Assembly (NCBI GenBank): GCA_037445065.1
Contig: JBBILD010000005.1
Location: 96,001 to 160,000, forward strand
Length of the DNA: 64,000 nt
Source: Myxococcales bacterium
GTDB lineage: Bacteria; Desulfobacterota; Binatia; HRBIN30
Reading direction: 5' to 3'
Part shown: positions 936 to 23,380 of the stretch, piece after piece
Layout of the letters: each line of letters begins with the position of its first letter
Position numbering within the stretch: position 1 is the stretch's first letter
The notes under the pieces: model-generated
The model's database searches: none
Seen by the model: only the letters and a program-made list of their open reading frames with translations
Told to the model about the DNA's origin: nothing
Position numbers and translations under genes: made by a program

Positions 936-948
936 AGGGAGACACTCC

Positions 949-2385: not shown

Positions 2386-2412
2386 CGGACTCCCAGCTCC
2401 TAGCTTGCTCGT

Positions 2413-3135: not shown

Positions 3136-3175
3136 GATGGCTTCCGTTCGTTCCGCAGCGAGCTAGCACCAACTC

Positions 3176-4735: not shown

Positions 4736-4764
4736 GTTTTTGTCCCGTTTCTATCAGCCGGAAA

Positions 4765-6778: not shown

Positions 6779-6791
6779 TCGCTCCTGGTCC

Positions 6792-8456
6792 TCAGTCGAG
6801 GTATCCGAGATTGCGCAAACGTTGCTCGAGCTCAGCCTCCTCCAAAGCCGAATACGGGTGCAAAACGTTTTGCGAAAATTGTTCCTGAGGCACAACACAG
6901 CGGCTGGTGCTTACAACGCTGCACAACGTTTCTCCATCGAAAAGTTGTGCCACCGATGTGCCACAAAGGGAGAGAATGGTCGGTGCCATTTGCACCATAT
7001 CCGCCGTAATCACTTCTCCCGTGCGTTCGACCTGTGGACCGGCAAGCGCGAAGATCCCTTCACGACGATGGGTTCCGCTCAGGCCGCCGAGCTTGCCCCC
7101 TTGCCAGCGTGCTCGGTCAAGCTCACTCCAGAGCGGCCCGCGTACGCCGCCACTCGAAGCCAGACTGTAAGAATACCCTCCTGTGGTCTCTGCCAACTCG
7201 ATCAGGAGATCGGGAGCCAGTTCGAGGCAAGGCCCTTCGTACAGCTCCTCCCGGCGCCACACACGCGCAACTGCTGGCGTTTCTCCGCCAGGTGCCGGCA
7301 GCCTCAAGATTGCCTCCGCTACCTCATCACGCACCCGTTCGTAGTCACGCGGCGCCACTCGGCCCGCAGGATCTCTTCCAGCGAGGTTGACCCACAATGA
7401 CGGGCACGTACTCGACTCTTCCGAGAAAACCCAGGTGTTCTTGAAATCGATGCCAGAAAAGCGGCTCCTCGTCTCCAGCTCATTGGCAACTGCGTTCTGC
7501 CTCCAGCGGAAGAAAGGGGCCTGCCACCGCGGAGGAACCCACCTGAGAGCCCAGCGTTTCACTGGTGTGAGATCGAGCACTCGCCGCGCCGGGAGGAAGC
7601 GGAGCCATCCCTGTTCAGCAAGCCAGCGATTCGCGTGAAAAAGCCACCCGCTCGCTCCACCGAAACCATGGTCCGAAAGTAGCAACACATCGGCATCCGG
7701 CACCTCTCTCCACAGCGCCGCCAAGGCCAGATCGAGCCGCTCGAACACCTCCAACAGAACTGATCCGAACTCCGACGCCCCCTCCGGGTCGTACAAGGGA
7801 CTCTGCGGATCGAAGAAGTGCCAATAGTGGTGCGAGGCCGTATCCGATTCGCCGAACAACAGGAAGAAGCAGTCCCACCGCTCCCGTCGCAATAAGACCT
7901 GCGCGAGCCGGAGCTTTCGTTCAATACCTTGCAAAAGTTTCCGCCGCGCCATGCGGTACCACTCGCGGTTGACGACGAACTCTTGAAATTCCGCGAACGG
8001 AAACCCGCCAAGATCGCGAATCAGCGGGGCGGCCGAAGGCGGGTAGACGAAGGAATCATCAGTCTTCGTGGTTACCGGGGTATCAAAACCGCTCACCAAA
8101 ATCCCGTTCACTGGTTCCGGAGGGTAAGTGGCGGGAAGGCCCACAACGCAGATCCGTCGCCCCAACTCGCTCAAAATCTTCCACACGGTGGGGGCTTGCC
8201 GATAGGTGGCGTTCACAAAGCGAACCCGATAGGTCCCAGGCTCTCGCCGAGTAAAATCGAAGATCCCGTGGCGACCGGGATTGACGCCGGTCATGAAGGT
8301 CGTCCAACTCGGAAAGGTCACCGGCGGCCACGGGGCCCGCAACGGCCCGCTCAAACCCAAGCGGCGCAGGCGAGCCAAGGCCGGCAACCGACCTTGCTGC
8401 AACCAAGGTTCAAGGACGTTCCAGGACGCCCCGTCCCAACCAACCACCAACAGCAT
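6792..8456 (-). CDS. Alkaline phosphatase superfamily, type I phosphodiesterase/NPP-like protein
   Basis: 'VVGWDGA', 'PPVTFPSWTTFMTGVNPGRHGIFDF', 'LSDHGFG', 'GTHRREG'. Confidence 0.85.
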   Translation of the reverse strand: MLLVVGWDGASWNVLEPWLQQGRLPALARLRRLGLSGPLRAPWPPVTFPSWTTFMTGVNPGRHGIFDFTRREPGTYRVRFVNATYRQAPTVWKILSELGRRICVVGLPATYPPEPVNGILVSGFDTPVTTKTDDSFVYPPSAAPLIRDLGGFPFAEFQEFVVNREWYRMARRKLLQGIERKLRLAQVLLRRERWDCFFLLFGESDTASHHYWHFFDPQSPLYDPEGASEFGSVLLEVFERLDLALAALWREVPDADVLLLSDHGFGGASGWLFHANRWLAEQGWLRFLPARRVLDLTPVKRWALRWVPPRWQAPFFRWRQNAVANELETRSRFSGIDFKNTWVFSEESSTCPSLWVNLAGRDPAGRVAPRDYERVRDEVAEAILRLPAPGGETPAVARVWRREELYEGPCLELAPDLLIELAETTGGYSYSLASSGGVRGPLWSELDRARWQGGKLGGLSGTHRREGIFALAGPQVERTGEVITADMVQMAPTILSLCGTSVAQLFDGETLCSVVSTSRCVVPQEQFSQNVLHPYSALEEAELEQRLRNLGYLD

Positions 8457-8461
8457 GGCAG

Positions 8462-10243
8462 CTACTGCCCAGGCCCGCCGGCGGCGCCGCGGCTCAAGCT
8501 TACTCGAAACGCCTCCAACGCGGCCCGCAATTCGCCGACGCGCTCCGGTCGCTCGCGGGCTAGGTTCCGTCGTTCGAGCGGATCCTTCTCGAGGTCGTAA
8601 AGTTCTATCTCCTCGAGCCCGCGCGGGTTCCCGGGATTGGCCAAGATGAGCTTTTCGGCTCCGAGTCGCACCATGGCCAGTTGGTTTCCTTCGAGTTCCT
8701 CTTCCGCGAATACCATTCGCTCGGCTGGCGGCGCTTCCGCCAGTAAATTGAGCCCTGGCAACTCACGTGGCGGCTCGTATCCGAGAGCCCGCACTGCTGT
8801 GGGGAAAATGTCAATGGTCAGGGCCAGATCAGAGCGGAACCCCGGAGACAAAGCAGGCCCGCGCCAAATCAAAGGCACGTGAATTTGCTCTTCATACAGC
8901 GTCGTGCCATGCCACCATCCCCCGTGCTCGAAAAACTCCTCGCCGTGATCGGCGGTGAAGACAAACCACGTGTTGTCCAAGAGCCCGTGTGAGCGGAACT
9001 GGTCCAACAGCGCCCCAAAATGCTCGTCGAAGTAACGCACATCTTGCGCATACAACCGCCGCATTTCCTCTGCTTGATCCGCGTGCGGCCGTGGATTCGC
9101 AACCCGGGCGATTCCTCTCCCATTGTAGGGAATCTCGAAGTACGGATCGTGCGGGTCCATGTAGTGGACCAGCAAAAAGAACGGCTGGGGTGGTTTCGCG
9201 GACAGCCACCGGCTCACGGCCGCGGTGACCACCTCCGCGTCCTGGTAATAATGTCGAAAATAAATCCGATGTTTCCAGAATCGCTCGCGCAGTAAGCGCA
9301 AGATCTTGTACGACGCCAGACGGGTCGCCGAGTCGCTCGCTCCAAAGTAAAAGGAGGGAGCCAAGTAGTGATACTCGCCGAAGCCCTGGTCGAAGTTAAA
9401 AATGGGCGCCACGTTGATGTTGGTGACGAACGCTGCGGTCCAGTAACCGCGCCGCTGCAGAAACTCAGCAAGCGTATCCACCTGTTCGGGCAAAGGGTCC
9501 AACTTCCGTACCGCCCCATGCTCGCGCGGATACAGACCGGTCAAAATGGTCGCGATCGAGGGGCGGGTCCAGGACGATTGCGCGTAGGCGCGGCGAAAGA
9601 CCACACCTTCGCGCGCAAAGACATCGATGCGAGGGCTCGATTCAGCCGGCGCCCCATAAATCCCGAGCGCATCGGCACGCAACGTGTCGGCAACCACGAG
9701 AACCAGGTTCGGTCTTCCCGGCTCCGCCGTCGCCACCCGTGCCGGAACCGCAGCTAGGGGAGCGCGCACGCGTACACCGAACTCCACGACTGCCGCGCAA
9801 GCCACCCAAGCGACCGCCAGAACCAACAGCCGGCTTGCCCTCCCCCGCAACAACCGGCGTAATAGAAGCGCAAAGCACATCGCCAGGAGGAACGCGCCAA
9901 CCAACAGGCCTGCGTGAATTCCAAGACCGACCCCAGTCCATAACGGGAGCTGTTCTCCGAAGACTCGCTGCGCGAGATAATACCGCCCTACCAAAAAAAC
10001 GAGCAGTACCGCGGCCACTTGAGCCCCGAGCGCGGCCGCGTTTGCTGGCATCCGCCGCCAGATCCACGGCAGTCCCAAAAGGGACAACGCGGCACCGAGA
10101 CCACCGTAGCTCAAAAACGCAAAGCTCCAGATGCCGTACTCTTCCGGAGCAGCGGAGGTCGCTAACACGAGCCCGGCCTCGGCGAGTCCCACCAAGCTCC
10201 CGGCCCACAACCCTCCGAGAAGCAACGCGAAAAAACGAGTCAC
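8462..10243 (-). CDS. Membrane-anchored sulfatase-like hydrolase/transferase
   Basis: About five N-terminal TM helices then 'DTLRAD', 'SSWTRPSIATILTG', 'HYMDPHDPY', 'TADHGEEF'; GTG at 10243 after GGAGG. Confidence 0.8.
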   Translation of the reverse strand: MTRFFALLLGGLWAGSLVGLAEAGLVLATSAAPEEYGIWSFAFLSYGGLGAALSLLGLPWIWRRMPANAAALGAQVAAVLLVFLVGRYYLAQRVFGEQLPLWTGVGLGIHAGLLVGAFLLAMCFALLLRRLLRGRASRLLVLAVAWVACAAVVEFGVRVRAPLAAVPARVATAEPGRPNLVLVVADTLRADALGIYGAPAESSPRIDVFAREGVVFRRAYAQSSWTRPSIATILTGLYPREHGAVRKLDPLPEQVDTLAEFLQRRGYWTAAFVTNINVAPIFNFDQGFGEYHYLAPSFYFGASDSATRLASYKILRLLRERFWKHRIYFRHYYQDAEVVTAAVSRWLSAKPPQPFFLLVHYMDPHDPYFEIPYNGRGIARVANPRPHADQAEEMRRLYAQDVRYFDEHFGALLDQFRSHGLLDNTWFVFTADHGEEFFEHGGWWHGTTLYEEQIHVPLIWRGPALSPGFRSDLALTIDIFPTAVRALGYEPPRELPGLNLLAEAPPAERMVFAEEELEGNQLAMVRLGAEKLILANPGNPRGLEEIELYDLEKDPLERRNLARERPERVGELRAALEAFRVSLSRGAAGGPGQ

Positions 10244-10355
10244 AACGCCGGCGCCTCCACCTGCTCGCGCCGGCAACCTCCGATCGTGCGTTCACCCGGC
10301 GCCGCACACAACAGTGCCCCGCCTATCTGCGTCTCCCAATGCGAGGCCATCCCCT

Positions 10356-12347
10356 TCATTGACCCAACTGAACGATGCGAGCGTCCTCGCGTAAGAGTTT
10401 GCGCAGCGCTTGCCCGGTGCGGGCCGCTTCCTCCTGGGTATTGCCCGCATGCACCGTGACGCGCTGCACCTTCTTGTCGCTACCGAGGCTTGCGGTGCGG
10501 ACCCGAGCCTGAAAGCCACGCTGTCGGAGTGCCGCCGCGAGCTGATGTGCCCGCTGACCGTTCGGCGTTGAGAGAACCAGCAGCGCAAATCCATCTTCCG
10601 AGCGCAGGATCGGCAAGCCTTCCTTCAGATCTGGCAGGCGGAGCACTTGGCCCGGGCTGATCCAATCCACATCCACAATCTCCGGATTGGCGAGCTTGAT
10701 CAGATCCAGGACTGTGTAACTCGCCTGTCCGTACTTCGCGCGTGCAATCCCCGAAAGCGAATCGCCTTCTCGGATCACGAGACGCGTAAAACGCTCCCCG
10801 CCCCACACCCCTCCTGTTTCCTGTTCGCTCCCCACCACCCCGCCGGGTGCCGGACCCACCTCCGGCTGCGCAGCCCCAACCACCGGTGCCGACAACTGCT
10901 CGCGCGTGTGCTCGGCATCCTCCGCCCTGGCATCCGCCGTGCCCAGCGCTCGCTCCTCGAGCGCGCCGGCGGCTGCCGCAGATCTCTGCGCTTCCTTGCC
11001 AGCGTTGGACGGATTCTCAACCTGGGCCACCGCCAACGGGTTTTCTCGAGCTGCCGCGACGTTTTCGCGCGGCACGTTTACGCCGGCCACCTCAACGCCC
11101 AAGCTCGCCTCCACAGAATGGACCTCTTGCTGTTCCCCTGCGTGCTGTTCCCCAGCGCCGCTCTCGCGAGCTCCGCCGCTTGCGGCAGGCGGCACGTCCT
11201 CGAGCATCGCCAGGCGGGCCGGCTCAGCTCGGGGCGGGACAGCTCGTTCCACCGCTGTGCCGCCGGCCGGCACCTCCACAGGAGCCGGCACATCGCGCAC
11301 CGAGCCCGGCTTAATGACTTCACCCGGTGGGAGGGGCGAGTTCGGTGGCTCACTGAGCGGTTGATTTCCCGGCCGCAAAAGCGCAGCACCCAACCAAGTC
11401 CCTAGCGCAAGCGCGGTTACGATGCTCGCGCCCCACACCATGCGCCTCCACTTCCGTGGCTCAGCCGAGCCCTCGGCGACTTCCTCACCGCTTGCCGCAA
11501 CGGCCGGCGCTGCCGCCGATTGCTTCGATGCTTCCCCACCTTCCAGCGGCAACAAATCAGCCGCCGCTTCTTTGATGATGTCCGCGCCGATGCGGCGCTT
11601 CCCAAGAGCGTAGCCAATGACCAGGGCGTTGTCGCACACCACGTTGACCAGGCGCGGGATGCCGCGAGAGAAATGGTAGATCTGATCTTCGGCGTCCCGG
11701 GTAAAGAGTTTCAGGTCTGGAGCACCAGCGGCCTGCAAACGGAACTGAATGTATTCGCTCACCTCGTCCCGAGATAGCGGGAGCAAGCGGCAATTGATAC
11801 CGATGCGCTGACGCAGCTGTCTCAGTGCGGGGTTGCTGAGCTTCTGGCCCAATTCGGGCTGGCCAGAGAGAACGATCTGCAAAATTTTTTCTTTCGCCGT
11901 CTCGAGGTTCGATAGGAGGCGCAAATCCTCCAGGACGGAAATGTCCAGATCCTGAGCCTCGTCGATCAGAAGTGCCACGTTACGCCCGCGCGACAACTCC
12001 TCCAGCAAAAAGGCATTCAGGCGCTGCAGCATGTACAGCTTTTTGCCGCTGTGCACCGGCAGGTCGAACTCGGCGAAGATGTACTCGAGAATTTCCTCGA
12101 ACGTCACGTTCGTATTGAAGAGGAAGACCGTCCGCGTATTGGGGTCCAGGTCATCCAACAGGCGCTTCAGCAGAGTGGTTTTGCCGGTCCCAGCTTCGCC
12201 GATCAACGTGATAAAGCCCTTGCGCTGGGTGATGCCGTACTGCAGCGCGGCCACCGCCTCCCGATAACGCGCATTCAAATAAAGAAACTTCGGATCCGGA
12301 GTAACGTTAAATGGCCGCTCGCTCAGTTGATAAAATTCGCAGTACAT
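10356..12347 (-). CDS. ExeA/GspA-family AAA ATPase with TM helix, LysM and SPOR-like C-terminal domains
   Basis: 'MYCEFYQLSERPFNVTPDP', GEAGTGKT, 'LLIDEAQDL', 'RGIPRLVN'; 'IREGDSLSGIA...ANPEIVDVDWISPGQVLRLP' LysM. Confidence 0.85.
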   Translation of the reverse strand: MYCEFYQLSERPFNVTPDPKFLYLNARYREAVAALQYGITQRKGFITLIGEAGTGKTTLLKRLLDDLDPNTRTVFLFNTNVTFEEILEYIFAEFDLPVHSGKKLYMLQRLNAFLLEELSRGRNVALLIDEAQDLDISVLEDLRLLSNLETAKEKILQIVLSGQPELGQKLSNPALRQLRQRIGINCRLLPLSRDEVSEYIQFRLQAAGAPDLKLFTRDAEDQIYHFSRGIPRLVNVVCDNALVIGYALGKRRIGADIIKEAAADLLPLEGGEASKQSAAAPAVAASGEEVAEGSAEPRKWRRMVWGASIVTALALGTWLGAALLRPGNQPLSEPPNSPLPPGEVIKPGSVRDVPAPVEVPAGGTAVERAVPPRAEPARLAMLEDVPPAASGGARESGAGEQHAGEQQEVHSVEASLGVEVAGVNVPRENVAAARENPLAVAQVENPSNAGKEAQRSAAAAGALEERALGTADARAEDAEHTREQLSAPVVGAAQPEVGPAPGGVVGSEQETGGVWGGERFTRLVIREGDSLSGIARAKYGQASYTVLDLIKLANPEIVDVDWISPGQVLRLPDLKEGLPILRSEDGFALLVLSTPNGQRAHQLAAALRQRGFQARVRTASLGSDKKVQRVTVHAGNTQEEAARTGQALRKLLREDARIVQLGQ

Positions 12348-12454: not shown

Positions 12455-13894
12455 TCACTTTTTCTCCCGGCCGCCCAGCCGAAAGGGCGCAGCCTCGATC
12501 CCGTGCGCGCGCAGCTTGCGGTGTAGCGTGGCCTGATCCACCCCTGCAAAACGCGCGGCTTGTACAATGTTGCCCTGGAATTGGCCGAGAACTGCCAGCA
12601 GATACTCTTTCTCCGCCTGTCGCAAATGCTCGCGCAGGGGCCCGTACGCCGCCCCGGACAGCGACACCTTACGAAGACCCGCTGACACACGGACACCAAC
12701 CTCGACTCGCTCGATCCTGCCCCCGCTCGCGATCAACACCGCCCGCTCGAGCACGTTCCACAACTCCCGCACATTGCCTGGCCAATCGTGCTGAAGCAAC
12801 TGCTGCATGGCCGACTCGGAAACGCTGGTCACCCCTTTCTCGCGCGCCAGTGGGTGGTTCTGCAGAAACTCGCTGACCAGCAAGGGAATGTCTTCACGCC
12901 GGTCGCGCAGCGGCGGCAGGTGCACCGGCACGACATGGATTCGATAATAGAAGTCTTGGCGCATCCGCCCCTCTGCAACCGCTTTGCCCAGATCTTCGTT
13001 GCTCGCAGCGACAACTCGCATGTCCACTGCGATACGCCGATTGCCTCCCAGCCGCTCGACCGTGCGTTCTTCCAGCACGCGCAGGAGCTTCGCTTGCATG
13101 GCCAAGGGAATGCTCTCCACCTCGTCAAGAAAAAGCGTGCCGCCGTTGGCCAGCTCGATTTTGCCAACCCGGTCCGCCGTGGCTCCGGTAAACGCCCCTT
13201 TTTCATACCCGAAGAGTTCGCTCTCGAGCAGGTTCTCCGGGATCGCCGCACAATTGATCGCCACAAACGGACCCTCTTTGCGGCGCCCCTGAAAATGCAG
13301 TGCGCGTGCCACCAATTCCTTCCCGGTGCCTGACTCACCGATCACCACAACGGTGGAGTCCGTTTCGGCCAGAGCCGCTACCAGGGCAAACACCTCCCGC
13401 ATCAAGGGATTCCGGCTCACCATGTTCGCGAACCGGGTCCGCTCACTGAGCCGATCGCGCAAGTACTGGATCTCGTCTATGAGCCGGCGCCGCTCCAACA
13501 CTCGCTGCGTGGCCAGCAAGATTTCCTCGCTCTCGAAGGGCTTGGTAATGTAGTCGGCAGCACCCTGCCTCATGGCCTCCACCGCCCCCCGGATGCTGCC
13601 ATGGCCAGTGACCATGATCACATCGATCGCTGGCCACCGCACACGGATTTCGTGCAGCAAGCTCGCCCCATCGCGGCCAGGCATCAGTAAATCGAGCAGC
13701 ACTAACGAGTAGGCACGCTGCGTCAGCGCGCTCAGCGCCTCTTCGGCATCCACCGCGGCGTCTACTGAGAACCCGTGAGCGGCATACAGCCGCGCCAATT
13801 GATGGCGAATCAGCGGGTCGTCGTCTACGACGAGCACCCGGACCGGCACACTCGGGGACTGCCTCAGCTCTGAATTGGAAGTTGAATGCGCCAC
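12455..13894 (-). CDS. Sigma-54-dependent response regulator (NtrC family: REC-AAA+-Fis HTH)
   Basis: REC DD/D/T/K intact; GESGTGKE, GAFTGA, 'LFLDEVE', 'WPGNVREL'; start uncertain (GTG 13894 or 13849). Confidence 0.92.
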   Translation of the reverse strand: MAHSTSNSELRQSPSVPVRVLVVDDDPLIRHQLARLYAAHGFSVDAAVDAEEALSALTQRAYSLVLLDLLMPGRDGASLLHEIRVRWPAIDVIMVTGHGSIRGAVEAMRQGAADYITKPFESEEILLATQRVLERRRLIDEIQYLRDRLSERTRFANMVSRNPLMREVFALVAALAETDSTVVVIGESGTGKELVARALHFQGRRKEGPFVAINCAAIPENLLESELFGYEKGAFTGATADRVGKIELANGGTLFLDEVESIPLAMQAKLLRVLEERTVERLGGNRRIAVDMRVVAASNEDLGKAVAEGRMRQDFYYRIHVVPVHLPPLRDRREDIPLLVSEFLQNHPLAREKGVTSVSESAMQQLLQHDWPGNVRELWNVLERAVLIASGGRIERVEVGVRVSAGLRKVSLSGAAYGPLREHLRQAEKEYLLAVLGQFQGNIVQAARFAGVDQATLHRKLRAHGIEAAPFRLGGREKK

Positions 13895-14520
13895 ATCCGA
13901 TCCCTTCCCTGCGCGTGATCGCGAGTCAATTGCCCTCCTTGTCCCAGCAACGCCTTGCTGGCAACCGCCCACCATAGTTCCCATTCGGACAAGTGCGGTA
14001 CCCGCCAACAATCTGGGAGCGCCAGGGCGAGCCACAAGTGTCGCTGGTCCGCTGTGGCCTCCAGTGCGAGTTCCACGAGGCCCCCCAACGGAGTCGAGGA
14101 TTGATGAGTCAGCAACAAAACCCGGCACAACGCGCGCCAGGCAACGGAGAGGCGTTGGGGGTCTACTGTCACCGTCACCTCGGGGCAGCTCCGTGGGCGG
14201 CGACAATCCACGTTTGCCGGCAACGATCCGCGCAAGGCGGCGATGAAGCTTTGCAACACCTCCAGTGCCGCATAGGGCTCGCTATGGCCCTCGGGTAGGT
14301 CCCAGAAGTCGAACAAGGCACGCAGCGTGTCTTCCAACCGTGTCAGGGTTTCTGCGAGCTGTTGCCCACTCGTGGGTGCGCTGCGCTGGGCTTCCTCGGC
14401 TAAGGCGCGTAGTCGCTGCAACAAGTTACCGACCAGGTGCGAGGCACTGTCCGTCACCGTGCGGGCAAGGGCCGCGACTTCCGCCTCTACGGGGCCAGGC
14501 CGCTGCAAGGTTGGCGACAT
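13864..14520 (-). CDS. Degenerate histidine-kinase-like protein (His-box plus eroded HATPase), possible phosphotransferase
   Basis: 218 aa from ATG 14520 after GAGGAGG; 'SHLVGNLL' H-box-like, 'VDPQRL', 'LLGQGGQL', 'WRIQLP' match the HK skeleton; N/G1/G2 boxes absent. Confidence 0.6.
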   Translation of the reverse strand: MSPTLQRPGPVEAEVAALARTVTDSASHLVGNLLQRLRALAEEAQRSAPTSGQQLAETLTRLEDTLRALFDFWDLPEGHSEPYAALEVLQSFIAALRGSLPANVDCRRPRSCPEVTVTVDPQRLSVAWRALCRVLLLTHQSSTPLGGLVELALEATADQRHLWLALALPDCWRVPHLSEWELWWAVASKALLGQGGQLTRDHAQGRDRMWRIQLPIQS

Positions 14521-14767: not shown

Positions 14768-16546
14768 GTGGAACGCCTGCGGGTGGCTGTGGTTGACCGC
14801 TCACCGACTGTCCGGGAAACCGTCGCGATTATTCTGCCCGAGTACGAAGTCCTGCCCTGGGCTCCCGAGCAATTTGCGGAGATCCAAGGGACGTGCGGTG
14901 TGGACTTGGTCGTCGCCGAGCAAGGGGCAATTGACGATGCGACGGTCGCTCTCAAAGCGCCCGGGGTTCCGGTGGTGTGGCTGCGCCCCGACCCCCGCCA
15001 AAGCGGCGGCTCTTCTCTAGCCGTTGGGCGCTCTTTCACTGCAGCCGAGCTGCGGCAAAAGATTCAGGCCGCTTTGGCGTTACGGCCAGCCGAACCGGGT
15101 AGTCTCGCGGTTTACGGTTTTCCGCCGCCGTTGCTACCAGCAGCGCTCGTTCCCCTGTTCGTATCGGCAGCGCGGAGTTCGTTGCCGGTTTGGATCAGTG
15201 GCGAGTTCGGAACGGGCCGCGCTCGGCTTGCGCGAGCCCTTCACGCCAGCAGTGGCAGCCAGCACTTTTTGGCCGTCCCAGGCAATCAATGCGGGCCCGA
15301 ACTCGAAGCTCAGTTCCCGCCCCAAGCGGCGGGCACGGTGACACTGTATATCGAGGACGTGGAAGACCTCCCCCCTCGTGCCCAAGCCTGGCTCCTCGAC
15401 ATCCTCGAGGCTGGGCGTCAGTCACGAGACCGACGCGGGATGCGGGTGCGGGTACTGTGCAGCACAACGCTGAGTCGCGACGAGATCGAGGCCCGGCAGA
15501 TGCTCCGTGGCGAGCTGCTTTACGCTCTCACGGCGTTCCTGTTCCCGTTACCGCCCTTGCGAGAGCGCCGGGCTGAGATCCCCGAAATCGTACGCTTTGT
15601 CGCACGCCGTTTGTCAGAGGAAGCCTCGCTCCCGCCGGGCACGTTTACACCTTCCGCCTTCGAGCGGCTACAAAATTACCTATGGTTCGGGAACCTCACG
15701 GAGCTGGAAGCCGTTTTAGCCCGAACCCTGGCGCGGGTGCCACACCGGCCGATTGATGCTGCCGATCTCTGCTTTGGCTACGAGCCCATACCTGCGACCA
15801 GCGCCGCGACCAGCGAAAGCCGTTCCTCCGGCCCTCGGCTGAGCCCAGAACCGAGTCACCAAATCGAAGTTCTCGTAAATGAACTCGCCCATGAAATCCG
15901 CAACCCGCTGGTGGTCATTAAGACGATTAGCCAACACCTCGAACGCCTACTCGAAAGCGCTTCGGGTCGCGAAGAGGTGGCTCAGCTCGCCGGAGAGGCG
16001 GTGGAAAAGCTGGACGCCTTGTTCGAAACGCTGCTCCGCTATGCCCGTTTCCGGGAACCCAACCGAGAGCCAACCAGCGTGAACGCCATTGTCGCTCAGA
16101 CGCTCGGGGAGCTCGCTCCGCTGCTCTCCGAGCGACGGATCCTAGTTCATTACCGACCACCGAATCCTCAGCCCATTGTGGCGGACCGCGAACAGTTGGC
16201 CTTTGCCTTACAAAGTTTGCTGCAGGCCATCGTGCGGGACGTGGAAGAAGGTACCACGATCACGATCGAGCCGGGACCGGATCCTCATTCTCTCCAACTC
16301 CAGTTTCCGCCGGTACGAGGAGGCGTGACACAACGACTGAGTACCTTCGTGGACAGCGCGGGCAACACAGAACGCGCCGAGCCGCTCGGGCTCTTGATTG
16401 CACGCTCGTTGCTCCAGCGAAATGGCGGCTCAGTACTGATCCGCGACTCCCCGGATCAGGAGGTCACCACGATGCTCCTCCGCTTTCCGGCCAATGCAGG
16501 GGCAAAGACGGGTTATGGCGAAACACCGAGTTTTGATCGTAGATGA
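14768..16546 (+). CDS. Fusion of pseudo-receiver, degenerate sigma-54 AAA+ domain, HisKA and degenerate HATPase
   Basis: 'GEFGTGRARLA', 'LYIEDVE', 'LPPLRERRAEIP', 'WFGNLTEL', then 'LAHEIRNPL' and 'PLGLLIARSLLQRNGG'. Confidence 0.8.
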   Translation: MERLRVAVVDRSPTVRETVAIILPEYEVLPWAPEQFAEIQGTCGVDLVVAEQGAIDDATVALKAPGVPVVWLRPDPRQSGGSSLAVGRSFTAAELRQKIQAALALRPAEPGSLAVYGFPPPLLPAALVPLFVSAARSSLPVWISGEFGTGRARLARALHASSGSQHFLAVPGNQCGPELEAQFPPQAAGTVTLYIEDVEDLPPRAQAWLLDILEAGRQSRDRRGMRVRVLCSTTLSRDEIEARQMLRGELLYALTAFLFPLPPLRERRAEIPEIVRFVARRLSEEASLPPGTFTPSAFERLQNYLWFGNLTELEAVLARTLARVPHRPIDAADLCFGYEPIPATSAATSESRSSGPRLSPEPSHQIEVLVNELAHEIRNPLVVIKTISQHLERLLESASGREEVAQLAGEAVEKLDALFETLLRYARFREPNREPTSVNAIVAQTLGELAPLLSERRILVHYRPPNPQPIVADREQLAFALQSLLQAIVRDVEEGTTITIEPGPDPHSLQLQFPPVRGGVTQRLSTFVDSAGNTERAEPLGLLIARSLLQRNGGSVLIRDSPDQEVTTMLLRFPANAGAKTGYGETPSFDRR

Positions 16547-17903
16547 CGAGTCGGGTGTGCGTCACTCCCTCACCTTGGTCCTCAAGGACCAATATGAGGT
16601 ACTCAGTGTCGCCACAGGCCAAGAAGCGCTCGAGCTTCTCGACCGCAGTGCGTTCGACGTGGTCCTACTCGATATCCTTCTGCCAGGCATCGACGGGCTA
16701 GAGGTGCTCGAGAAGATCAAGGAGCGCCCCGTTGCGCCGCAAGTCATCATGCTCACCGCCACCAAGACGGTAAAGACTGCAGTTCGGGCGATGAAGCTCG
16801 GCGCCTTCGACTACGTGACCAAGCCGTTCGACGTGGAAGAGTTACTGATCTTGATTGAGCGGGCTGTGCAATCCTCCGCGCTGGCCCGCGAAGTGGAGGC
16901 GCTGCGCAGCGAAGTCGGCCTGCGGTACAGTTTCGAGAACATCGTCGGGCGCTCGCAAAAGATGCAACAGGTGCTGCGCACCGTGTCCTTGGTCGCACCA
17001 CTGAAAACCACCGTACTGATCACAGGAGAAAGCGGCACGGGGAAGGAACTCATCGCCAAGGCGCTCCACTACCACAGCCCGCGAGCAAACCGCCCGTTGA
17101 TCACCCTCAACTGCGCGGCAATTCCGGAGAACTTGCTCGAGAGCGAACTCTTCGGCCACGAGCGGGGGGCGTTCACCGATGCTCATTCGCGGAAACTCGG
17201 GCAGTTCGAGCTGGCCGATCAGGGCACGATTTTCCTGGACGAAATTGGGGAAATGCAGCCGGCTACCCAAGCCAAGATTCTGCGCGTCCTCGAACAAGGC
17301 GAGTTCTTGCGCGTGGGCGGCACGCAACCGGTCCGGGTGGACGTGCGGGTGATCGCAGCCACCAACCGAGACCTGAGCGAGGGGATCCGGGAGGGCCGCT
17401 TCCGTTCCGACCTTTATTATCGGCTCAACGTGGTTTCGATTCATTTGCCACCGCTGCGCGAACGCAGGGAGGACATCGTTCCCCTCATCCGTCATTTCCT
17501 CGCCCGTAAAGCGCACGAACTGGGGGTACCGCTGAAATCATTCACAAGAGAAGCGATGGATTTGCTGCTCGCATACTCTTGGCCCGGAAATGTTCGGGAA
17601 CTCGAGAACGTTGTAGAACGTGCATTGGTATTGTCCACGCAACCCGAGCTGGGCCCTGCCGATTTGCCCGAGTACATCGCTCGCCAGGAAGCATTTGCCC
17701 ACCCTGTACAGCAAAGCGTCCTGCGCGGTGAGACAAGCCTCAGCGAGGCAGTCGACCAGTTCGAACAAGAACTCATTCGCCGCGCCCTCGAACAGGCTGG
17801 GTACAACCAAACCCGTGCCGCTCAAATCCTCGGCACCACCCGACGCATCCTGAAGTATAAAATGGATAAGCTCGGCATCCGGGCAGCCGAAGAAAACGCT
17901 TGA
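16515..17903 (+). CDS. Sigma-54-dependent response regulator (NtrC/AtoC family)
   Basis: Intact REC, GESGTGKE, GAFTDA loop, 'IFLDEIGE', 'DLYYRL', 'WPGNVREL', Fis HTH. Confidence 0.93.
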   Translation: MAKHRVLIVDDESGVRHSLTLVLKDQYEVLSVATGQEALELLDRSAFDVVLLDILLPGIDGLEVLEKIKERPVAPQVIMLTATKTVKTAVRAMKLGAFDYVTKPFDVEELLILIERAVQSSALAREVEALRSEVGLRYSFENIVGRSQKMQQVLRTVSLVAPLKTTVLITGESGTGKELIAKALHYHSPRANRPLITLNCAAIPENLLESELFGHERGAFTDAHSRKLGQFELADQGTIFLDEIGEMQPATQAKILRVLEQGEFLRVGGTQPVRVDVRVIAATNRDLSEGIREGRFRSDLYYRLNVVSIHLPPLRERREDIVPLIRHFLARKAHELGVPLKSFTREAMDLLLAYSWPGNVRELENVVERALVLSTQPELGPADLPEYIARQEAFAHPVQQSVLRGETSLSEAVDQFEQELIRRALEQAGYNQTRAAQILGTTRRILKYKMDKLGIRAAEENA

Positions 17904-18154
17904 GCTTCTTTCTCACTCGCCGCGCATCCCTCGGTCCTCTCCCGCAACAATCGTAACGTAGGCCGTCGCGTCCGCGCCCCTGTCCCAAAAGCGGCATCCA
18001 AGCGACGGCAGCTTCGTACAATTGCGTCGTAGTTGTACAATTTCGAACAGGACCCGACTGGAAGAAGCGTCACAAGCATGGCGCAACAGGAGACTCCGTT
18101 AGATTTTTGCAGTGTTTTCGGCACTGGTGGTGTTCAAAAACTTGACGCCCCCCA

Positions 18155-18170
18155 TGGCATGCTTCGTGCT
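18155..18170 (+). promoter_or_regulatory. Sigma-54 (-24/-12) promoter
   Basis: TGGCATG-CTTC-GTGCT matches TGGCACG-N4-TTGCW with exact GG/GC spacing; intergenic, directly downstream of a bEBP gene. Confidence 0.7.
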
Positions 18171-18183
18171 GTGCTGGGTGCTG

Positions 18184-19320
18184 ATGATCGAGTCTCCAGA
18201 ACGCCCCGACTCGGATCTCCCCGAGGATCGCCCCTCTGTTCTGATCATTGACGACGAGCTTGGGCCATCTGAGTCTCTGCGCATGATCCTGTCCTCGTAC
18301 TACAACGTGTACCTGTGCCGCGATGGCCAAGAAGGGCTCGAGGCGTTGCGTCGGCACCCGATTGATGTGGTGACCCTGGATTTACGCATGCCGTCCATGG
18401 GCGGCATCGACGTGCTCAAGCAAATCAAACAAATTGATCCAGAGGTCGAAGTCATTATCGTCACTGCGTACGCGTCCCTCGAAACGGCGGTGCAAGGTCT
18501 CCGGTGGGGCGCCTTCGACTACATTTGCAAGCCGTTTGATGTGCCGCACATCGCCGAGCTGGTGGACCGGGCGATCAAGCGGCGCCGCGCGCGGTTGTAC
18601 GGGCGCCGCTCCCGCGAACATTTTTTGGGGAACCTTTCGCACGAGTTGCGGACGCCGCTGAGTGCGATCATTGGATACAGCTCGATCCTCGCCGAGGAGC
18701 TGGCCACGACGGCTAACCCAGAACAGCTCTCTGCACTCAGTCGGATTCAAGCGAACGCGGTGGAGTTACTCAACCTGATCGAAGGAGTGCTCATTCTGAA
18801 TGGGATTGACGCCGGGGAGATCAGTCCCAACATCGTGGACTTCGATGCTGTCGAGCTGGTCCAACACGTGCTTGGCCAGTTCGCCAACCAGGCAGAGGAA
18901 AAGGGGGTCACGTTGGCGACGAACATCGCGCAAGAGCATGTGTTCCTGCGCAACGATCCCAACAAGTTGGCTCGGATCGTGTGGGGTCTCATTGACCATG
19001 CACTAAAGTTCGGCAGCGGCGGCACTCTCACGGTTCAGTTAGAGCCGCATCCGACCAGTGGCGGCTTACGTTTCCTTCTACTCGACCCCTCGTCGAGCAT
19101 TGACGCCGCTGAACTCCAGCTCGCAATTGACGGCTACTTGCAGGACGACATCCGTGGGCGGCGGCGCGATCGCGGCTTAGGCATCGGCCTGCGGGTGGCC
19201 GTGCAGTTTACCCGCATGCTCGGGGGACGCCTGCGCGTGCGCCACCTCGAGCCGGGGGGGACGCGCCTAGAACTGCAGATCCCCAGTTGGGACCTGCACC
19301 GTAGCTCCTCCCTCCACTGA
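18184..19320 (+). CDS. Hybrid REC-HisKA-HATPase protein with degenerate ATP-binding boxes
   Basis: REC intact (IIDD, TLDLRMP, CKPF); 'LSHELRTPL'; N-box 'GLIDHALKF', G1 'DPSSS'; start set at ATG 18184 because earlier starts overlap the sigma-54 site. Confidence 0.85.
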   Translation: MIESPERPDSDLPEDRPSVLIIDDELGPSESLRMILSSYYNVYLCRDGQEGLEALRRHPIDVVTLDLRMPSMGGIDVLKQIKQIDPEVEVIIVTAYASLETAVQGLRWGAFDYICKPFDVPHIAELVDRAIKRRRARLYGRRSREHFLGNLSHELRTPLSAIIGYSSILAEELATTANPEQLSALSRIQANAVELLNLIEGVLILNGIDAGEISPNIVDFDAVELVQHVLGQFANQAEEKGVTLATNIAQEHVFLRNDPNKLARIVWGLIDHALKFGSGGTLTVQLEPHPTSGGLRFLLLDPSSSIDAAELQLAIDGYLQDDIRGRRRDRGLGIGLRVAVQFTRMLGGRLRVRHLEPGGTRLELQIPSWDLHRSSSLH

Positions 19321-19331
19321 GGGCCCAGCCG

Positions 19332-20036
19332 ATGGTCAAGCGTGACACAGCCCGCACCTGGATCGCCTGCCGCCAATGCGGCGTGGCTCAGCCGCTCCCC
19401 AACTCGGCCAGCCCCGGACCCGTTTTGCAAGAAATGGAGCAAGCTGCGACGTCGTTCCTCGATGCGCACAGCAAGCACTTGCTCATAACCCTGTTCCGTG
19501 TGGAGGAAGCTCCGGTGCTGGCGGACCGTCCACTCTGGGATCCCACGGCGCGGGTGACCGTTCAGGCCACCGACGGCCAAACCGACTACCTCATCACCGC
19601 CGAACGGCCTTCGGTAGAAGAACAACGCACCTACCATGTTTGCGAAGGACGCTTGCCACCGGTGCAGGTTGAAATCGAGCTGGTAACAACCGAATTTCGC
19701 AGCGCCCTCCGGAAGGTTTTTGGCACCCAGACCGAAGCTGCCGCGCTGCAGCGACTTGAGGCGGCAGTGCAGAACTTGGTGGCAAGTATGGATCCGACGC
19801 TGCTCGAGTCCGCCTTCGACGACCCCGACCATCCCAGCGTACAGTACGCAGATTGGCCAGATCCTTACCGAACCGATCTTTGCCTGCTGGGAAGGCGTTT
19901 CCTCCCAGAGTGCGTGGCACCAGCTTGGCAACGCTTCGTGGACGAGCAAGCTGTGGCTCACGGCGCGCTGGCGCTCAAGAAAGTCGCCCGCATTCAGCGT
20001 AGCTCCGAGGGAAGAAGTTTGCCCGCCCCCCTATAA
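19332..20036 (+). CDS. Hypothetical protein with N-terminal CxxC...HxxH (possible Zn-binding)
   Basis: 234 aa, 11 bp after the preceding gene; 'CRQC', 'HSKH'. Confidence 0.65.
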   Translation: MVKRDTARTWIACRQCGVAQPLPNSASPGPVLQEMEQAATSFLDAHSKHLLITLFRVEEAPVLADRPLWDPTARVTVQATDGQTDYLITAERPSVEEQRTYHVCEGRLPPVQVEIELVTTEFRSALRKVFGTQTEAAALQRLEAAVQNLVASMDPTLLESAFDDPDHPSVQYADWPDPYRTDLCLLGRRFLPECVAPAWQRFVDEQAVAHGALALKKVARIQRSSEGRSLPAPL

Positions 20037-20068
20037 CCTCTGGCCTCGCTGTGGTACCAAATGCGACC

Positions 20069-21280
20069 ATGCAATTGGGCCCGGCACACGCGACGGCTGA
20101 GTCTGTCCTCTCCCGGCTGCCTCGTTCGGCGCGCAGAATGTTCGATCAGGCTCTCGAGGGGCGAGCCCTCGGTCGCGCAGAGGCATTGGAGCTGATCCAT
20201 GATCCGAGTCCAGTGACGTACGAGGCACTGCTGGCGGTGGCCGGTACGGTACGCACCCGCGAGAAAGGAACGACAGTCACGTATTCACCCAAGGTCTTTC
20301 TTCCTGTGACCAATCTCTGCCTAGACCGCTGCTCCTACTGCACCTTTCGAGCTGACCCGGATGACCCACACGCATGGACCATGTTGCCAGAAGAAGTACG
20401 CGCAGTCTGCCGCTCCGGCCGTGCCCTCGGCTGCACCGAAGCCCTGCTCTGCCTAGGCGATCGGCCGGAACGTGTCTTTGCGAGCTACCGCTCTACACTC
20501 GAACTGCTCGGGGCGAAGAGTACGCCGGACTACCTCGTCCGAGTCAGTGAGTGGGCACTGGCAGAGGGGCTTCTCCCCCACACCAACGCCGGCTTGCTGA
20601 CCCGCGAAGAGATGGTCGCGCTTCGCCCGACCAACGTTAGCATGGGCTTGATGTTGGAGAACGTTTCTCCCCGTTTGCGCAGGAAGGGGCAAGCACACTG
20701 GCACGCCCCCGATAAAGATCCTGCCAAGCGGCTGCAAATGATCCGGATCGCTGGGGAACTGCGGATTCCCTTCACCAGTGGGATCTTGCTTGGCATCGGA
20801 GAGACGCGCACGGAAATCGTTGACAGCATTTTAGCCCTGGTCCATGTGCATCGAGAATTCGGCCATATCCAGGAGATCATCATTCAAAACTTCCGCGCGA
20901 AACCGAGCACCCGTATGGCCGCCTTCCCAGAACCAACGACCATGGAGATTGCTCAGACGTTGGCCGTAAGCCGCCTCCTTGCCCCTGACATGAACCTCCA
21001 AGCACCACCCAATTTGAACCCATACGATCACCGCGTGCTGTTGCGCGCAGGGTTGAACGACTGGGGCGGAATCTCTCCGCTCACTCCAGATTTCGTCAAT
21101 CCCGAGGCACCTTGGCCGCATGTGAAGGCATTGGCGGACCTTTGCTGGGAAGAAGGTTTCACCTTGCGCGCGCGCCTGCCAATCTACGACGAGTACATGG
21201 ATCGAGACGAATTCGTGGACCCAGCCTTGCGCGCGATCTTGCGCGCCAGACAGGAGCATCAAGGAGAGGCACGATGCTGA
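20069..21280 (+). CDS. cofG: FO synthase subunit CofG (radical SAM)
   Basis: 'VTYSPKVFLPVTNLCLDRCSYC', 'LPHTNAG', 'QAPPNL', 'NDWGGISP'. Confidence 0.93.
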   Translation: MQLGPAHATAESVLSRLPRSARRMFDQALEGRALGRAEALELIHDPSPVTYEALLAVAGTVRTREKGTTVTYSPKVFLPVTNLCLDRCSYCTFRADPDDPHAWTMLPEEVRAVCRSGRALGCTEALLCLGDRPERVFASYRSTLELLGAKSTPDYLVRVSEWALAEGLLPHTNAGLLTREEMVALRPTNVSMGLMLENVSPRLRRKGQAHWHAPDKDPAKRLQMIRIAGELRIPFTSGILLGIGETRTEIVDSILALVHVHREFGHIQEIIIQNFRAKPSTRMAAFPEPTTMEIAQTLAVSRLLAPDMNLQAPPNLNPYDHRVLLRAGLNDWGGISPLTPDFVNPEAPWPHVKALADLCWEEGFTLRARLPIYDEYMDRDEFVDPALRAILRARQEHQGEARC

Positions 21281-22518
21281 TTGCAGAGTTACGCCGTTTC
21301 CTTACCGAACCGCCTTCGCTCGCTGAGTCGTTGCAGCGAGCACAGCCCGGAGTTCGGGCTGTGCTGGAGCACGCCCTGGAGGACAAGGAGCTTTCCTTCG
21401 AACAAGGGATGACCTTGCTCGGGAGCGGCGGTCCTGATCTCGCCGCGCTCTTGCACGCTGCCGATGAACTGCGCCGGCGCGACGTCGGCGAGGTGGTCAC
21501 CTACGTGGTCAATCGGAACATCAACTTCACCAACGTCTGCTTCGTGGGCTGCCAGTTTTGCGCGTTCGCCCGGCACCGCAAAGACCCCGACGCGCGGACG
21601 GACAGCATCGAGCAGGTGCTCGCCAAGGTGGAGGAAGCGGTACAGGAGGGTGCAACCGAGATTTGCATGCAGGGTGGCATCAATCCTGAGATGGACGCCT
21701 TTGCGTACCGGGACTTGCTTCTCGCAATCAAACGCCACTTCCCCCAGATCCACATCCACGCCTTCTCTCCAATGGAGATCTTTTACGGGGCGCGCCGCAC
21801 GGGGATGAATTACCACGACTACCTGAGCATGCTGCGAGACGCCGGACTGGGAACAATTCCCGGCACGGCAGCAGAAATCCTCGATGACGAGGTACGCGAG
21901 GTCCTCAGCCACAAAAAAGTGGACGTACGGAGCTGGGTGGAAATCGTCACCACCGCGCACCGGGTCGGTCTTCGCAGCTCTTCGACCATGATGTACGGGC
22001 ACATTGAAAAGCCTCACCACATCATTCGCCACCTCGAACTTCTCCGCGCCCTCCAGAAAGACACCGGTGGCTTCACCGAATTCGTGCCCCTCCGCTTCAT
22101 CCATCCGTACACGGCACTGTACCAAAAGGGTCTCGTGAACCCGCCCCCCAAGGGAGCCCTAGATTTCAAGATTTACGCCGTGTCCCGCCTGATGCTGCGG
22201 CCGTACATCGTGAACATCCAAACATCGTGGGTAAAGCTCGGTACGGAACTGGCACAACTGTCGTTAGCAACTGGCTGCAATGACTTCGGTGGCACACTCA
22301 TGGAGGAACAGATCTCTAAGTCAGCGGGTGCCGACGCAGGTGAGTACCTGCCCGTTGCAACGATCCGCAGCTTGATCTTAGGCATGGGCCGCATCCCCAG
22401 GGAGCGAACGACTGTTTATGGAATCGTGGAGCGCGAATGTCCCGAGGCGCCGCTACGCGGTGCTCGCTGGCGGGGTGGGAGCGGCCCGCTTGCTGCGGGG
22501 GCTCTATGCGCTCGTTGA
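21274..22518 (+). CDS. cofH: FO synthase subunit CofH (radical SAM)
   Basis: 'VVNRNINFTNVCFVGCQFC', 'PGTAAEILDD', 'IQTSWVK', 'NDFGGTLMEE'; AAGGAG SD. Confidence 0.92.
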   Translation: MLIAELRRFLTEPPSLAESLQRAQPGVRAVLEHALEDKELSFEQGMTLLGSGGPDLAALLHAADELRRRDVGEVVTYVVNRNINFTNVCFVGCQFCAFARHRKDPDARTDSIEQVLAKVEEAVQEGATEICMQGGINPEMDAFAYRDLLLAIKRHFPQIHIHAFSPMEIFYGARRTGMNYHDYLSMLRDAGLGTIPGTAAEILDDEVREVLSHKKVDVRSWVEIVTTAHRVGLRSSSTMMYGHIEKPHHIIRHLELLRALQKDTGGFTEFVPLRFIHPYTALYQKGLVNPPPKGALDFKIYAVSRLMLRPYIVNIQTSWVKLGTELAQLSLATGCNDFGGTLMEEQISKSAGADAGEYLPVATIRSLILGMGRIPRERTTVYGIVERECPEAPLRGARWRGGSGPLAAGALCAR

Positions 22519-23380
22519 CCCCAACGCTCTTACGGTCATTGTCAACACCGCTGACGACGATGAGTTTTACGGCCTCCACGTGAGTCCCGACGTGGACACC
22601 GTGCTTTACTCGCTGGCAGGGCTCGCACCCGTCAAAAGGGGATGGGGGATTGCCCACGACAGTTTTCATTGCCTGAGCGCACTCGAGAAGTATTACGGGC
22701 CTGCCTGGTTCCAGCTTGGCGACCGGGATTTGGCGACGCACCTCTTCCGGACCGACGCCTTGCGCCGGGGACGTACGCTCACCGAGGTCACACATGCCCA
22801 AGCCCGAGCACTTGGCGTGCGTTGCCGCGTGCTCCCCATGAGCAACGAGCGGGTCCGCACCTTCGTGCGCACGCGTGAAGCAGGCTGGCTTCCTTTTCAG
22901 CGCTACCTCGTCCACCATTCCGCCACAGAAACGGTCGTCAACATCCGCTTTCGCGGGATCCGCCGCGCCCGCCCGACGCAAGCGGTCGTGCGCGCACTGC
23001 AAAATGCCGATTGGATTTTTCTGCCCCCGAGCAACCCGTTCGTGAGCCTCGGGCCGATTTTTGCCTTACCCGGGATCCGCGCACTTCTCGCCGGCAAGCG
23101 CAGGCGGGTGATCGCCGTGAGCCCGATCGTCGCGGGGGAACCAGTGAAGGGACCGCTGCATAAAATGCTCTCCGGCTTGGGTCACGAGGTCTCGGCTTAT
23201 GGGGCCGCGAAACTCTTACGGCCCGTGGCCCATTTCTTCGCCCTCGATCGGCGCGATGCTAGCGAGGCCCCCCGTATTGAACGTTTGGGCATGCAACCCA
23301 TCGTGACGGAAATCCTACTGCACTCTGCGGAACGGTCGCGCAACCTCGCCGCCACTTTGCTCGAGCTGACCCGTCCATGA
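22418..23380 (+). CDS. cofD: 2-phospho-L-lactate transferase CofD/FbiA
   Basis: 'LAGGVGAARLL', 'VNTADD', 'SPDVDT', 'WFQLGDRDLATH', 'PSNPFVS'. Confidence 0.93.
   Translation: MESWSANVPRRRYAVLAGGVGAARLLRGLYALVDPNALTVIVNTADDDEFYGLHVSPDVDTVLYSLAGLAPVKRGWGIAHDSFHCLSALEKYYGPAWFQLGDRDLATHLFRTDALRRGRTLTEVTHAQARALGVRCRVLPMSNERVRTFVRTREAGWLPFQRYLVHHSATETVVNIRFRGIRRARPTQAVVRALQNADWIFLPPSNPFVSLGPIFALPGIRALLAGKRRRVIAVSPIVAGEPVKGPLHKMLSGLGHEVSAYGAAKLLRPVAHFFALDRRDASEAPRIERLGMQPIVTEILLHSAERSRNLAATLLELTRP

Follow-up and report, generated by a model that had tools for sequence, protein, structure and literature searches.

Control of bacterial enhancer-binding proteins (bEBPs), the activators of sigma-54 promoters, normally comes from a cognate kinase, a ligand-binding domain or an anti-activator. 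Here we describe gene A, which lies at positions 14768 to 16546 (plus strand) of a 64,000-nucleotide stretch of DNA, hereafter the window, from a Myxococcales bacterium placed by GTDB in Desulfobacterota, Binatia, HRBIN30 (assembly GCA_037445065.1, contig JBBILD010000005.1). We confirmed that its product is derived from a bEBP, that its receiver (REC) and AAA+ sites are dead, and that its DNA-binding domain was swapped for a histidine-bearing module of the kinase type. No description of such a fusion was found in the open literature on bEBP/HisKA fusions, EBPs without GAFTGA and sigma-54 in Binatia, subscription-only papers lying outside this search.

Several described systems resemble parts of this protein. 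HrpR and HrpS are encoded by an adjacent pair of bEBP-type genes and are heteromeric, and both are active, GAFTGA-bearing, DNA-binding subunits. DivL and RetS have the histidine kinase fold and regulate two-component partners by binding, not by autophosphorylation; DivL has Tyr in place of the phospho-His, and RetS blocks GacS. Among the atypical EBPs, NtrX, VpsR, TyrR, HupR, HsfA and PhhR have lost GAFTGA and often also Walker B residues, as stated in PMC6158489. ChpT is reported in PMC3433190 to have histidine kinase architecture with an atypical Bergerat fold, crystals without bound ATP and no autophosphorylation, and ChpT of Caulobacter and Spo0B of Bacillus are presented there as dimeric histidine phosphotransferases acting between receiver domains. 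RedE, of the RedCDEF system of Myxococcus xanthus, is a histidine kinase-like protein incapable of autophosphorylation; according to PMC2755868 it accepts phosphate from a receiver and acts as a phosphatase on a different regulator.

Gene A is followed directly by a canonical bEBP gene, here gene B, and then by a gene for a REC-bearing histidine kinase, gene C. From sequence, structural models and analogy we suggest, with the chances for and against about evenly balanced, that gene A would be a non-kinase phosphotransferase or phosphatase like ChpT, Spo0B or RedE, acting on the receiver of gene B, and that its dead bEBP half would be a docking or regulatory module.

Domain anatomy and conservation of gene A

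The frame of gene A begins with GTG and is uninterrupted over 592 codons. Its stop codon (16544-16546) lies inside gene B, with an overlap of 32 nucleotides if B starts at the ATG at 16515, or 53 nucleotides if it starts at the ATG at 16494; an open frame of 592 residues overlapping the next bEBP had been noted in the earlier sequence-only reading of this DNA, and it holds. From the N-terminus the protein comprises a receiver-like domain, an AAA+ core, a lid, a dimerisation and histidine phosphotransfer (DHp) hairpin, and a domain of the catalytic and ATP-binding (CA) type; confidence in the model is given as the predicted local distance difference test (pLDDT).

14768..16546, plus strand: gene A (P0001), pseudo-REC, pseudo-AAA+, lid, DHp and pseudo-CA, 592 residues
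14777..15082, plus strand: pseudo-receiver, residues ~4-105, with a flavodoxin-like beta/alpha fold, from the model, the family profile and column counts
15140..15553, plus strand: pseudo-AAA+ core, residues ~125-262, with Walker A GEFGTGR, Walker B E-D, GAFTGA loop gone and A253 at the R-finger position
15560..15781, plus strand: AAA+ lid, residues 265-338, with the sensor II Arg replaced by T311
15782..15850, plus strand: low-confidence linker between lid and DHp, residues ~339-361, pLDDT <50 at 344-361
15851..16048, plus strand: DHp helical hairpin, residues 362-427, with H-box NELAHEIRNPL and the codon of H375 at 15890-15892
16067..16492, plus strand: degenerate CA (Bergerat-fold) domain, residues ~434-575, without N-box Asn and without G1 box

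Analysis with Pfam models found Sigma54_activ_2 (PF14532) at residues 133-264 (7e-14), the second half only of Sigma54_activat (PF00158, profile positions 91-164) at 187-256 (1e-9), AAA_lid_14 (PF25601) at 265-338 (1e-11) and HisKA (PF00512) at 369-429 (3e-7), while Response_reg (PF00072), HTH_8 and HATPase_c (PF02518) gave no match in gene A at E<=0.01. It is congruent with the earlier description of an intact HisKA box, an eroded HATPase and a missing Fis-type helix-turn-helix (HTH). Both neighbouring bEBPs (12455-14206, minus strand; 16494-17903, plus strand) are complete REC-AAA+-HTH_8 proteins by Pfam.

The states of the catalytic motifs were read from an alignment with these two intact bEBPs and 104 full-length members of the gene A family. 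The acceptor Asp position of the receiver is occupied by E51 ('LVVAEQ' against 'VVLLDI' in the intact bEBPs), and the KPF position reads R88-S89-F90, so that the conserved receiver Lys is R88. In the AAA+ part the Walker A Lys is R151 ('GEFGTGRA'), the DE of Walker B is E196-D197, the GAFTGA loop is a gap in the alignment, the R-finger position is A253 ('ELLYAL'), the sensor I Asn is Thr and T311 occupies the place of the sensor II Arg ('GNLTEL'). An intact H-box follows, 'NELAHEIRNPL', with His at H375; in the CA region the N-box Asn and the DxGxG of G1 are gone, and the G2-like end of the Bergerat fold is kept ('...PLGLLIARSLLQRNGG'). All substitutions named before (Asp to Glu, KPF to RSF, GTGK to GTGR, the GAFTGA deletion, the R-finger and sensor II changes) are present in these alignments. 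Measured against a bEBP, then, gene A has the NtrC-type AAA+ fold with its lid and lacks GAFTGA, the ATPase residues and a Fis-type HTH; against a receiver it has the fold and lacks the phospho-acceptor Asp and the Lys; against a class I histidine kinase it has the DHp with the H-box His and lacks the N and G1 boxes.

The AlphaFold model, built with 40 homologues, has a mean pLDDT of 83. It shows a five-stranded receiver-like domain with five beta/alpha units at residues 5-104, the AAA+ core at 125-262, the lid at 268-323, a disordered linker at 344-361, a DHp hairpin at 362-427 with helices 362-389 and 398-427, and an alpha/beta CA-like domain at 434-572 whose sole unconfident stretch, 520-535, is at the ATP-lid position. 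Foldseek matched the N-terminal half with NtrX, NtrC1, NtrC4, VpsR and LuxO (~2e-18 for NtrX and NtrC1), and the C-terminal half with HK853. The family profile gave the same picture: NtrC1 and NtrC4 were matched at ~5e-44, with REC and AAA of NtrC4 (3dzd) covered over residues 4-336, the receiver RR468 (4ja2) at 2e-8, and the ZraS kinase core (9jfj) at 2e-25 over residues 367-582; DivL (4q20) was also matched. Gene A and the atypical EBPs thus have in common an NtrC-type scaffold without GAFTGA, and among the structures that the model matches best are NtrX and VpsR. However, the atypical EBPs keep a C-terminal DNA-binding domain and act as transcription factors, as described in PMC6158489, whereas gene A has no HTH and carries DHp and CA instead.

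Relatives of gene A are numerous. A protein search gave ~110 clusters of ~590 residues, with 28-60% identity and the same Pfam set, so the architecture first read from this single gene recurs in relatives well beyond chance; the few of them that came with a source name have an unspecific one ('sigma 54-interacting transcriptional regulator', 'DNA-binding NtrC family response regulator', 'signal transduction histidine kinase'). Among 1.84 billion representative proteins, phmmer found 115 clusters at E<=1e-30, and the matches listed span the junction between lid and DHp. The protein atlas holds two gene A clusters, of 57 and 58 members, with automatic names only ('hypothetical protein'; a string of Pfam domains). 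In a scan of one genome per species we identified 186 loci with relatives of gene A, and gene context was studied in 80 of these, using the loci with room for the neighbour in question as denominators; the submitters' labels of the 80 are mostly Candidatus Binatia or 'Deltaproteobacteria' metagenome-assembled genomes. Gene A is single-copy in its own genome (3.79 Mb, 97.7% complete), and of 201 genomes sampled from the phylum 16 carry a relative (E<=1e-30).

The loss of many catalytic residues at once might suggest an assembly chimera or a functionless, decaying pseudogene, and a junction at ~15780-15870 was the place where a chimera would be expected. We rejected this explanation, to which we give next to no probability. 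Besides the ~110 clusters, the 186 loci and the 115 representative clusters with the full architecture, an 89,660-nucleotide contig from another sample covers the entire open reading frame (ORF) with 38 substitutions and 0 indels, contigs from two other studies bridge 15714-15929 without joints or indels, and the DHp and the lid are strongly conserved. Gene A is a real family under selection.

What was lost and what was kept differ sharply within the family. GAFTGA and the sensor II Arg are kept in 0/104 members, the sensor I Asn in 2/104, the exact DE of Walker B in 3/104, the acceptor Asp in 8/104 and the receiver Lys in 12/104. The Walker A Lys is kept in 81/104 and the R-finger Arg in 79/104, and 76 of the 104 members have the Walker A Lys together with an R-finger Arg or Lys. 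The H-box His is kept in 102 of 103 members. N379 and P380 never vary, E376 hardly does, and much of the DHp and the lid is likewise invariant or close to it; the lid is the best conserved piece of the bEBP-like half, with W306, G308, N309, E312 and E314 invariant. The motif S12..R16-E17-T18 in alpha1 of the pseudo-receiver is conserved family-wide. In an alignment with a histidine kinase core the family consensus has neither the N-box Asn nor G1; one family member among those listed, P0065, bears a precomputed PF02518 match. Judged from these residues, the family would have lost sigma-54 contact, ATP hydrolysis, receiver phosphorylation and ATP binding by the kinase part. Because the Lys and the Arg or Lys are kept in 76/104, nucleotide binding may survive in most relatives, though not in the window copy, which with its closest relatives is the most eroded of the family (Walker A R/H, R-finger A/L). 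So the label 'dead', given to gene A in the sequence-only reading, must be softened for those relatives that have a P-loop Lys as well as a trans-acting Arg or Lys.

A quick tree of AAA+ domains placed the gene A family in one clade (SH-aLRT, the approximate likelihood ratio test, 100), which a long stem sets apart from every canonical bEBP sampled. We also considered the AAA+ part of gene A as a duplicate of that of gene B and rejected it, as this tree, a quick one only, does not resolve gene A as sister to B.

Partner genes and the recurring His module

The genes around gene A which are related with the proposed system are the following.

16515..17903, plus strand: gene B, canonical REC-AAA+-HTH_8 bEBP; longest ORF from 16494
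18112..19320, plus strand: gene C, REC-HisKA-HATPase_c, with REC and H-box intact
19332..20036, plus strand: P0123, 234 residues with an N-terminal CxxC, after C; tblastn matches in 23 loci
13864..14520, minus strand: P0124, stand-alone DHp and pseudo-CA, 218 residues, His28 in HxLGNLFQR; divergent from gene A
12455..13897, minus strand: second canonical REC-bEBP (bEBP_up), start inferred near 13897 or 13849; long ORF to 14206

In gene B all motifs are intact: GAFTDA, Walker A and B, R-fingers, sensor II and the acceptor pocket of the receiver. A canonical REC-bEBP directly follows gene A in 77/77 loci with room, with a median gap of 8 nucleotides and an overlap in 26/77, and across the same loci the identity of B is 51-84% against 28-42% for A. 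A functional link between gene A and gene B is strongly supported by this unvarying adjacency, and strict adjacency with overlap suggests that the two are co-translated in a fixed ratio.

Adjacent bEBP-type genes whose products might co-assemble are reminiscent of HrpR/HrpS, from which gene A differs in being neither active, nor GAFTGA-bearing, nor DNA-binding. By this analogy the pseudo-AAA+ part of A might enter the hexamer of B and poison or tune it, as the sequence-only reading had proposed, and the His module would only report or regulate; we regard it as rather unlikely. It would be consistent with the adjacency and overlap, with strong purifying selection on the AAA+ core and above all on the lid, with the superposition of the N-terminal half of the model on NtrC1, NtrC4 and NtrX, and with the 76 members whose P-loop Lys and trans-acting Arg or Lys could complete the ATP site of a neighbour. 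Against it, the window copy is without the P-loop Lys and the Arg, and the AAA+ domain of A is on a long stem and not resolved as sister to B, so co-evolution of an A-B interface is not evident. The analogous partner of the other bEBP in the window, P0124, moreover has no AAA+ part at all.

P0124 sits in an apparently intergenic stretch of 560 nucleotides, directly upstream of the second bEBP. The long ORF of bEBP_up is matched by orthologues from residue ~105-123 onwards and not before, and because of this its start is placed near 13897, probably at a GTG, or later, near 13849, and not at 14206; the 3' end of P0124 then probably overlaps the start of bEBP_up, mirroring the overlap of A and B. 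P0124 is conserved in 22 related loci, where it adjoins the second bEBP upstream and the His in HxLGNLFQR is invariant. It had no Pfam match, and by BLASTP its similarity to A was not significant (E 3.8), but hhalign aligned it with residues 369-575 of A at a probability of 95.8% (E 6.8e-9), His on His, and its family profile matches ZraS (2.8e-7). The model of P0124 (pLDDT 87.7, predicted template modelling score 0.86) shows a DHp hairpin and a CA-like domain; its best Foldseek match was HK853 (2.8e-11), and YycG, RetS (6dk7) and DivL were also matched. The recurring unit is therefore a His module in front of a REC-bEBP, either stand-alone (P0124) or fused to a dead bEBP (gene A). As P0124 precedes the other bEBP without any AAA+ part, it argues that the function centres on the His module rather than on entry into a ring.

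Gene C follows B in 58/67 loci with room. Translation probably begins after the first ~38 residues of its listed ORF, since the alignment with orthologues starts at residue ~38. Its receiver keeps every acceptor-pocket residue, and the closest paralogue of this receiver in the genome is that of B (43% identity, 95 bits; next best 79 bits). The alpha1 helices of the B and C receivers are alike in the consensus, and together with the likeness of the receivers it fits one DHp serving both. We also tried a shared 'RE[ST]' code in alpha1 of the A, B and C receivers, which holds in the consensus and fails for the B and C of this genome, so it is no more than a lead. The CA domain is intact in 54/57 orthologues of C. 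In the C of the window the N-box Asn has become His and the DxGxG of G1 reads DPSSS, a state found otherwise only in the two nearest loci, L020 and L027, among the 57 orthologues, so that the one kinase of the cassette looks deficient in ATP binding in this sub-lineage. P0123, for which no Pfam or NCBIfam family was matched, may be a further component of the system.

A full sensor kinase is found directly upstream of the gene A homologue in 17/65 loci with room, including L048, L058, L060, L064, L090 and L099, in a distant subclade where the operon order is sensor kinase, A, bEBP and REC-kinase. These kinases have 500-750 residues, transmembrane/HAMP or GAF parts and intact N, G1 and G2 boxes; their H-box (GLAHEIRNPLVAIRT) is much like that of A, and they have 27-29% identity to residues 373-576 of A. 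It could mean that A forms a DHp heterodimer with C or with an upstream kinase, in which H375 would be phosphorylated in trans or A would brake its partner as RetS does GacS. The likeness of the upstream kinases, the co-operonic position of C with its CA domain mostly intact, and the kinase regions of RetS and DivL among the fold matches of P0124 point this way. However, 48/65 loci with room lack an upstream kinase, and the consensus residues after the His differ between A and C at the usual positions of partner specificity, so we consider this heterodimer quite unlikely.

How gene A might act

The recurrence of the His module, the disappearance of the ATP pocket and the preservation of just those residues that surround the His point to an action on the receiver of a bEBP through H375, which is the reading we prefer. 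In this scenario an NtrC-type REC-AAA+ protein would have been fused to a transmitter of the NtrB, AtoS or ZraS type; the product would then have lost its DNA-binding domain, GAFTGA, Walker B, both sensors (I and II) and the N and G1 boxes, while the DHp His with its H-E-x-x-N-P was kept. The DHp dimer of A would dock the receiver of B, and probably that of C too. It might then shuttle phosphoryl groups through H375 in the manner of ChpT, Spo0B and RedE, with C to A to B as the presumed order of the relay, or it might be a dedicated phosphatase. In either mode A would set the supply of phosphorylated B for ring assembly. The dead REC-AAA+-lid half would give affinity for the bEBP or its kinase, or regulation by them, as a bEBP mimic or a pseudo-substrate receiver; the conserved alpha1 (S12, R16, E17, T18) is a possible non-phosphorylatable pseudo-substrate for a DHp, and in most relatives the dead half may still bind or sense nucleotide.

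By analogy, the C-terminal half of A would work most like the phosphotransferases and phosphatases of histidine kinase shape, yet the profile matches listed give no sign that it belongs to those families by sequence. Like DivL and RetS, whose structures (4q20, 6dk7) were among the fold matches, it has a kinase fold, but unlike DivL it keeps the His, and neither of those two carries an AAA+ module. The likeness to ChpT and Spo0B is that residues 362-575 of A, and P0124, are each a His-bearing hairpin of the DHp type followed by a Bergerat-like domain devoid of an ATP site. With ~200 residues, ChpT and Spo0B each stand alone, whereas A adds a dead REC-AAA+-lid module of 350 residues, and among the matches listed its His module is closest to HisKA kinases of the ZraS/AtoS type. 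With RedE, as it is described in PMC2755868, A would share the character of a histidine kinase-like, non-autophosphorylating protein in a multi-gene two-component cassette, which for A is a prediction from sequence. RedE, likened here by description, lacks any part derived from a bEBP and acts on a single-domain regulator instead of a bEBP.

Several points weigh against an action of A as a phosphotransferase or phosphatase on B. ChpT and Spo0B are absent from the matches listed (60 of 102 PDB profile hits), so the likeness to them is architectural. The H-E-x-x-N box is common to ordinary HisKA kinases, and sequence cannot separate a transferase from a phosphatase. C is missing in 9/67 loci with room, and in this genome the cassette appears to have no obviously competent ATP-using kinase. 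The reading alone does not explain the selection on the REC-AAA+-lid half, given that P0124 does without one. Finally, the window copy lacks the Walker A Lys and the R-finger which most relatives keep, so its lineage may work differently from the rest of the family.

A combination is also conceivable, in which A would mimic a bEBP and, by docking on the partner bEBP or joining its assembly, would be a built-in phosphotransferase or phosphatase subunit. Phosphorylation and ring assembly would then be coupled in one hetero-oligomer, nucleotide-gated in the relatives that keep the Lys and the R-finger. We think this combination unlikely; if true, sigma-54 activators would be controlled in a new way, and a pseudo-AAA+ domain would be newly used to target a two-component module.

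For the sub-lineage of the window it might also be speculated that A is an adaptor independent of phosphorylation, a protein-binding anti-activator or scaffold of B in which the His is a structural constraint. The advanced erosion of this copy and of the relatives nearest to it (R/H in Walker A, A/L at the R-finger) would fit this, as would the C with N-box His and degenerate G1, confined to the window, L020 and L027 (3/57). On the other side, H375, E376, N379 and P380 are all intact in the window copy, no acceptor-pocket residue is missing from the B and C receivers, and the ORF of the second strain differs by its 38 substitutions without an indel; we find such an adaptor improbable.

Wider locus and significance

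The closer relatives share the arrangement of the window, with the minus-strand second bEBP and an exopolysaccharide cluster upstream, and cofG, cofH, cofD and cofE downstream. In the window the exopolysaccharide cluster (45-12347, minus strand) is of the XrtA/PEP-CTERM type, below curated cut-offs, and includes an O-antigen-ligase-like protein, a tyrosine autokinase, a chain-length determinant, an export protein, a sulfatase and, fused to LysM and SPOR, an ATPase of the PEP-CTERM system. On the PEP-CTERM response-regulator model, whose cut-off is 502, each of the two bEBPs of the window scores ~410 bits. The genes for coenzyme F420 biosynthesis, cofG, cofH, cofD and cofE (20051-24129, plus strand), come after the regulatory cassette, and cofG/cofH do likewise in 14 related loci.

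The genome has rpoN and 13 AAA+ domains of the bEBP type. Searching for sigma-54 sites (TGGCAC-N5-TTGCW, <=2 mismatches) gave 39 in the window against 33.6 expected, which is no enrichment, and a site upstream of A was found in 4/70 loci against ~2 expected. A sigma-54-like site at 19915-19930, upstream of cofG, was considered as a promoter and rejected, being conserved in 0/14 loci. Three overlapping matches of the TGGCAC type, -24/-12-like, are found within 50 nucleotides at 6937-6988 (minus strand), just upstream of the gene at 5468-6898 (minus strand), and make a possible candidate sigma-54 promoter for part of the polysaccharide cluster. Because the locus lies between the exopolysaccharide cluster and the F420 genes, the system may govern envelope or biofilm functions.

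The host lineage is poorly known and uncultured. By analogy, a design of the ChpT/Spo0B/RedE type may have been reinvented next to sigma-54 activators, twice in this locus. The pseudo-receiver, pseudo-AAA+ and pseudo-kinase of gene A, joined in one chain, are a clean case of the recycling of pseudo-enzymes in bacterial signalling. Gene A probably represents a widespread, unstudied third partner of bEBP control, a dead copy of an activator joined to the phospho-His module of a dead kinase.

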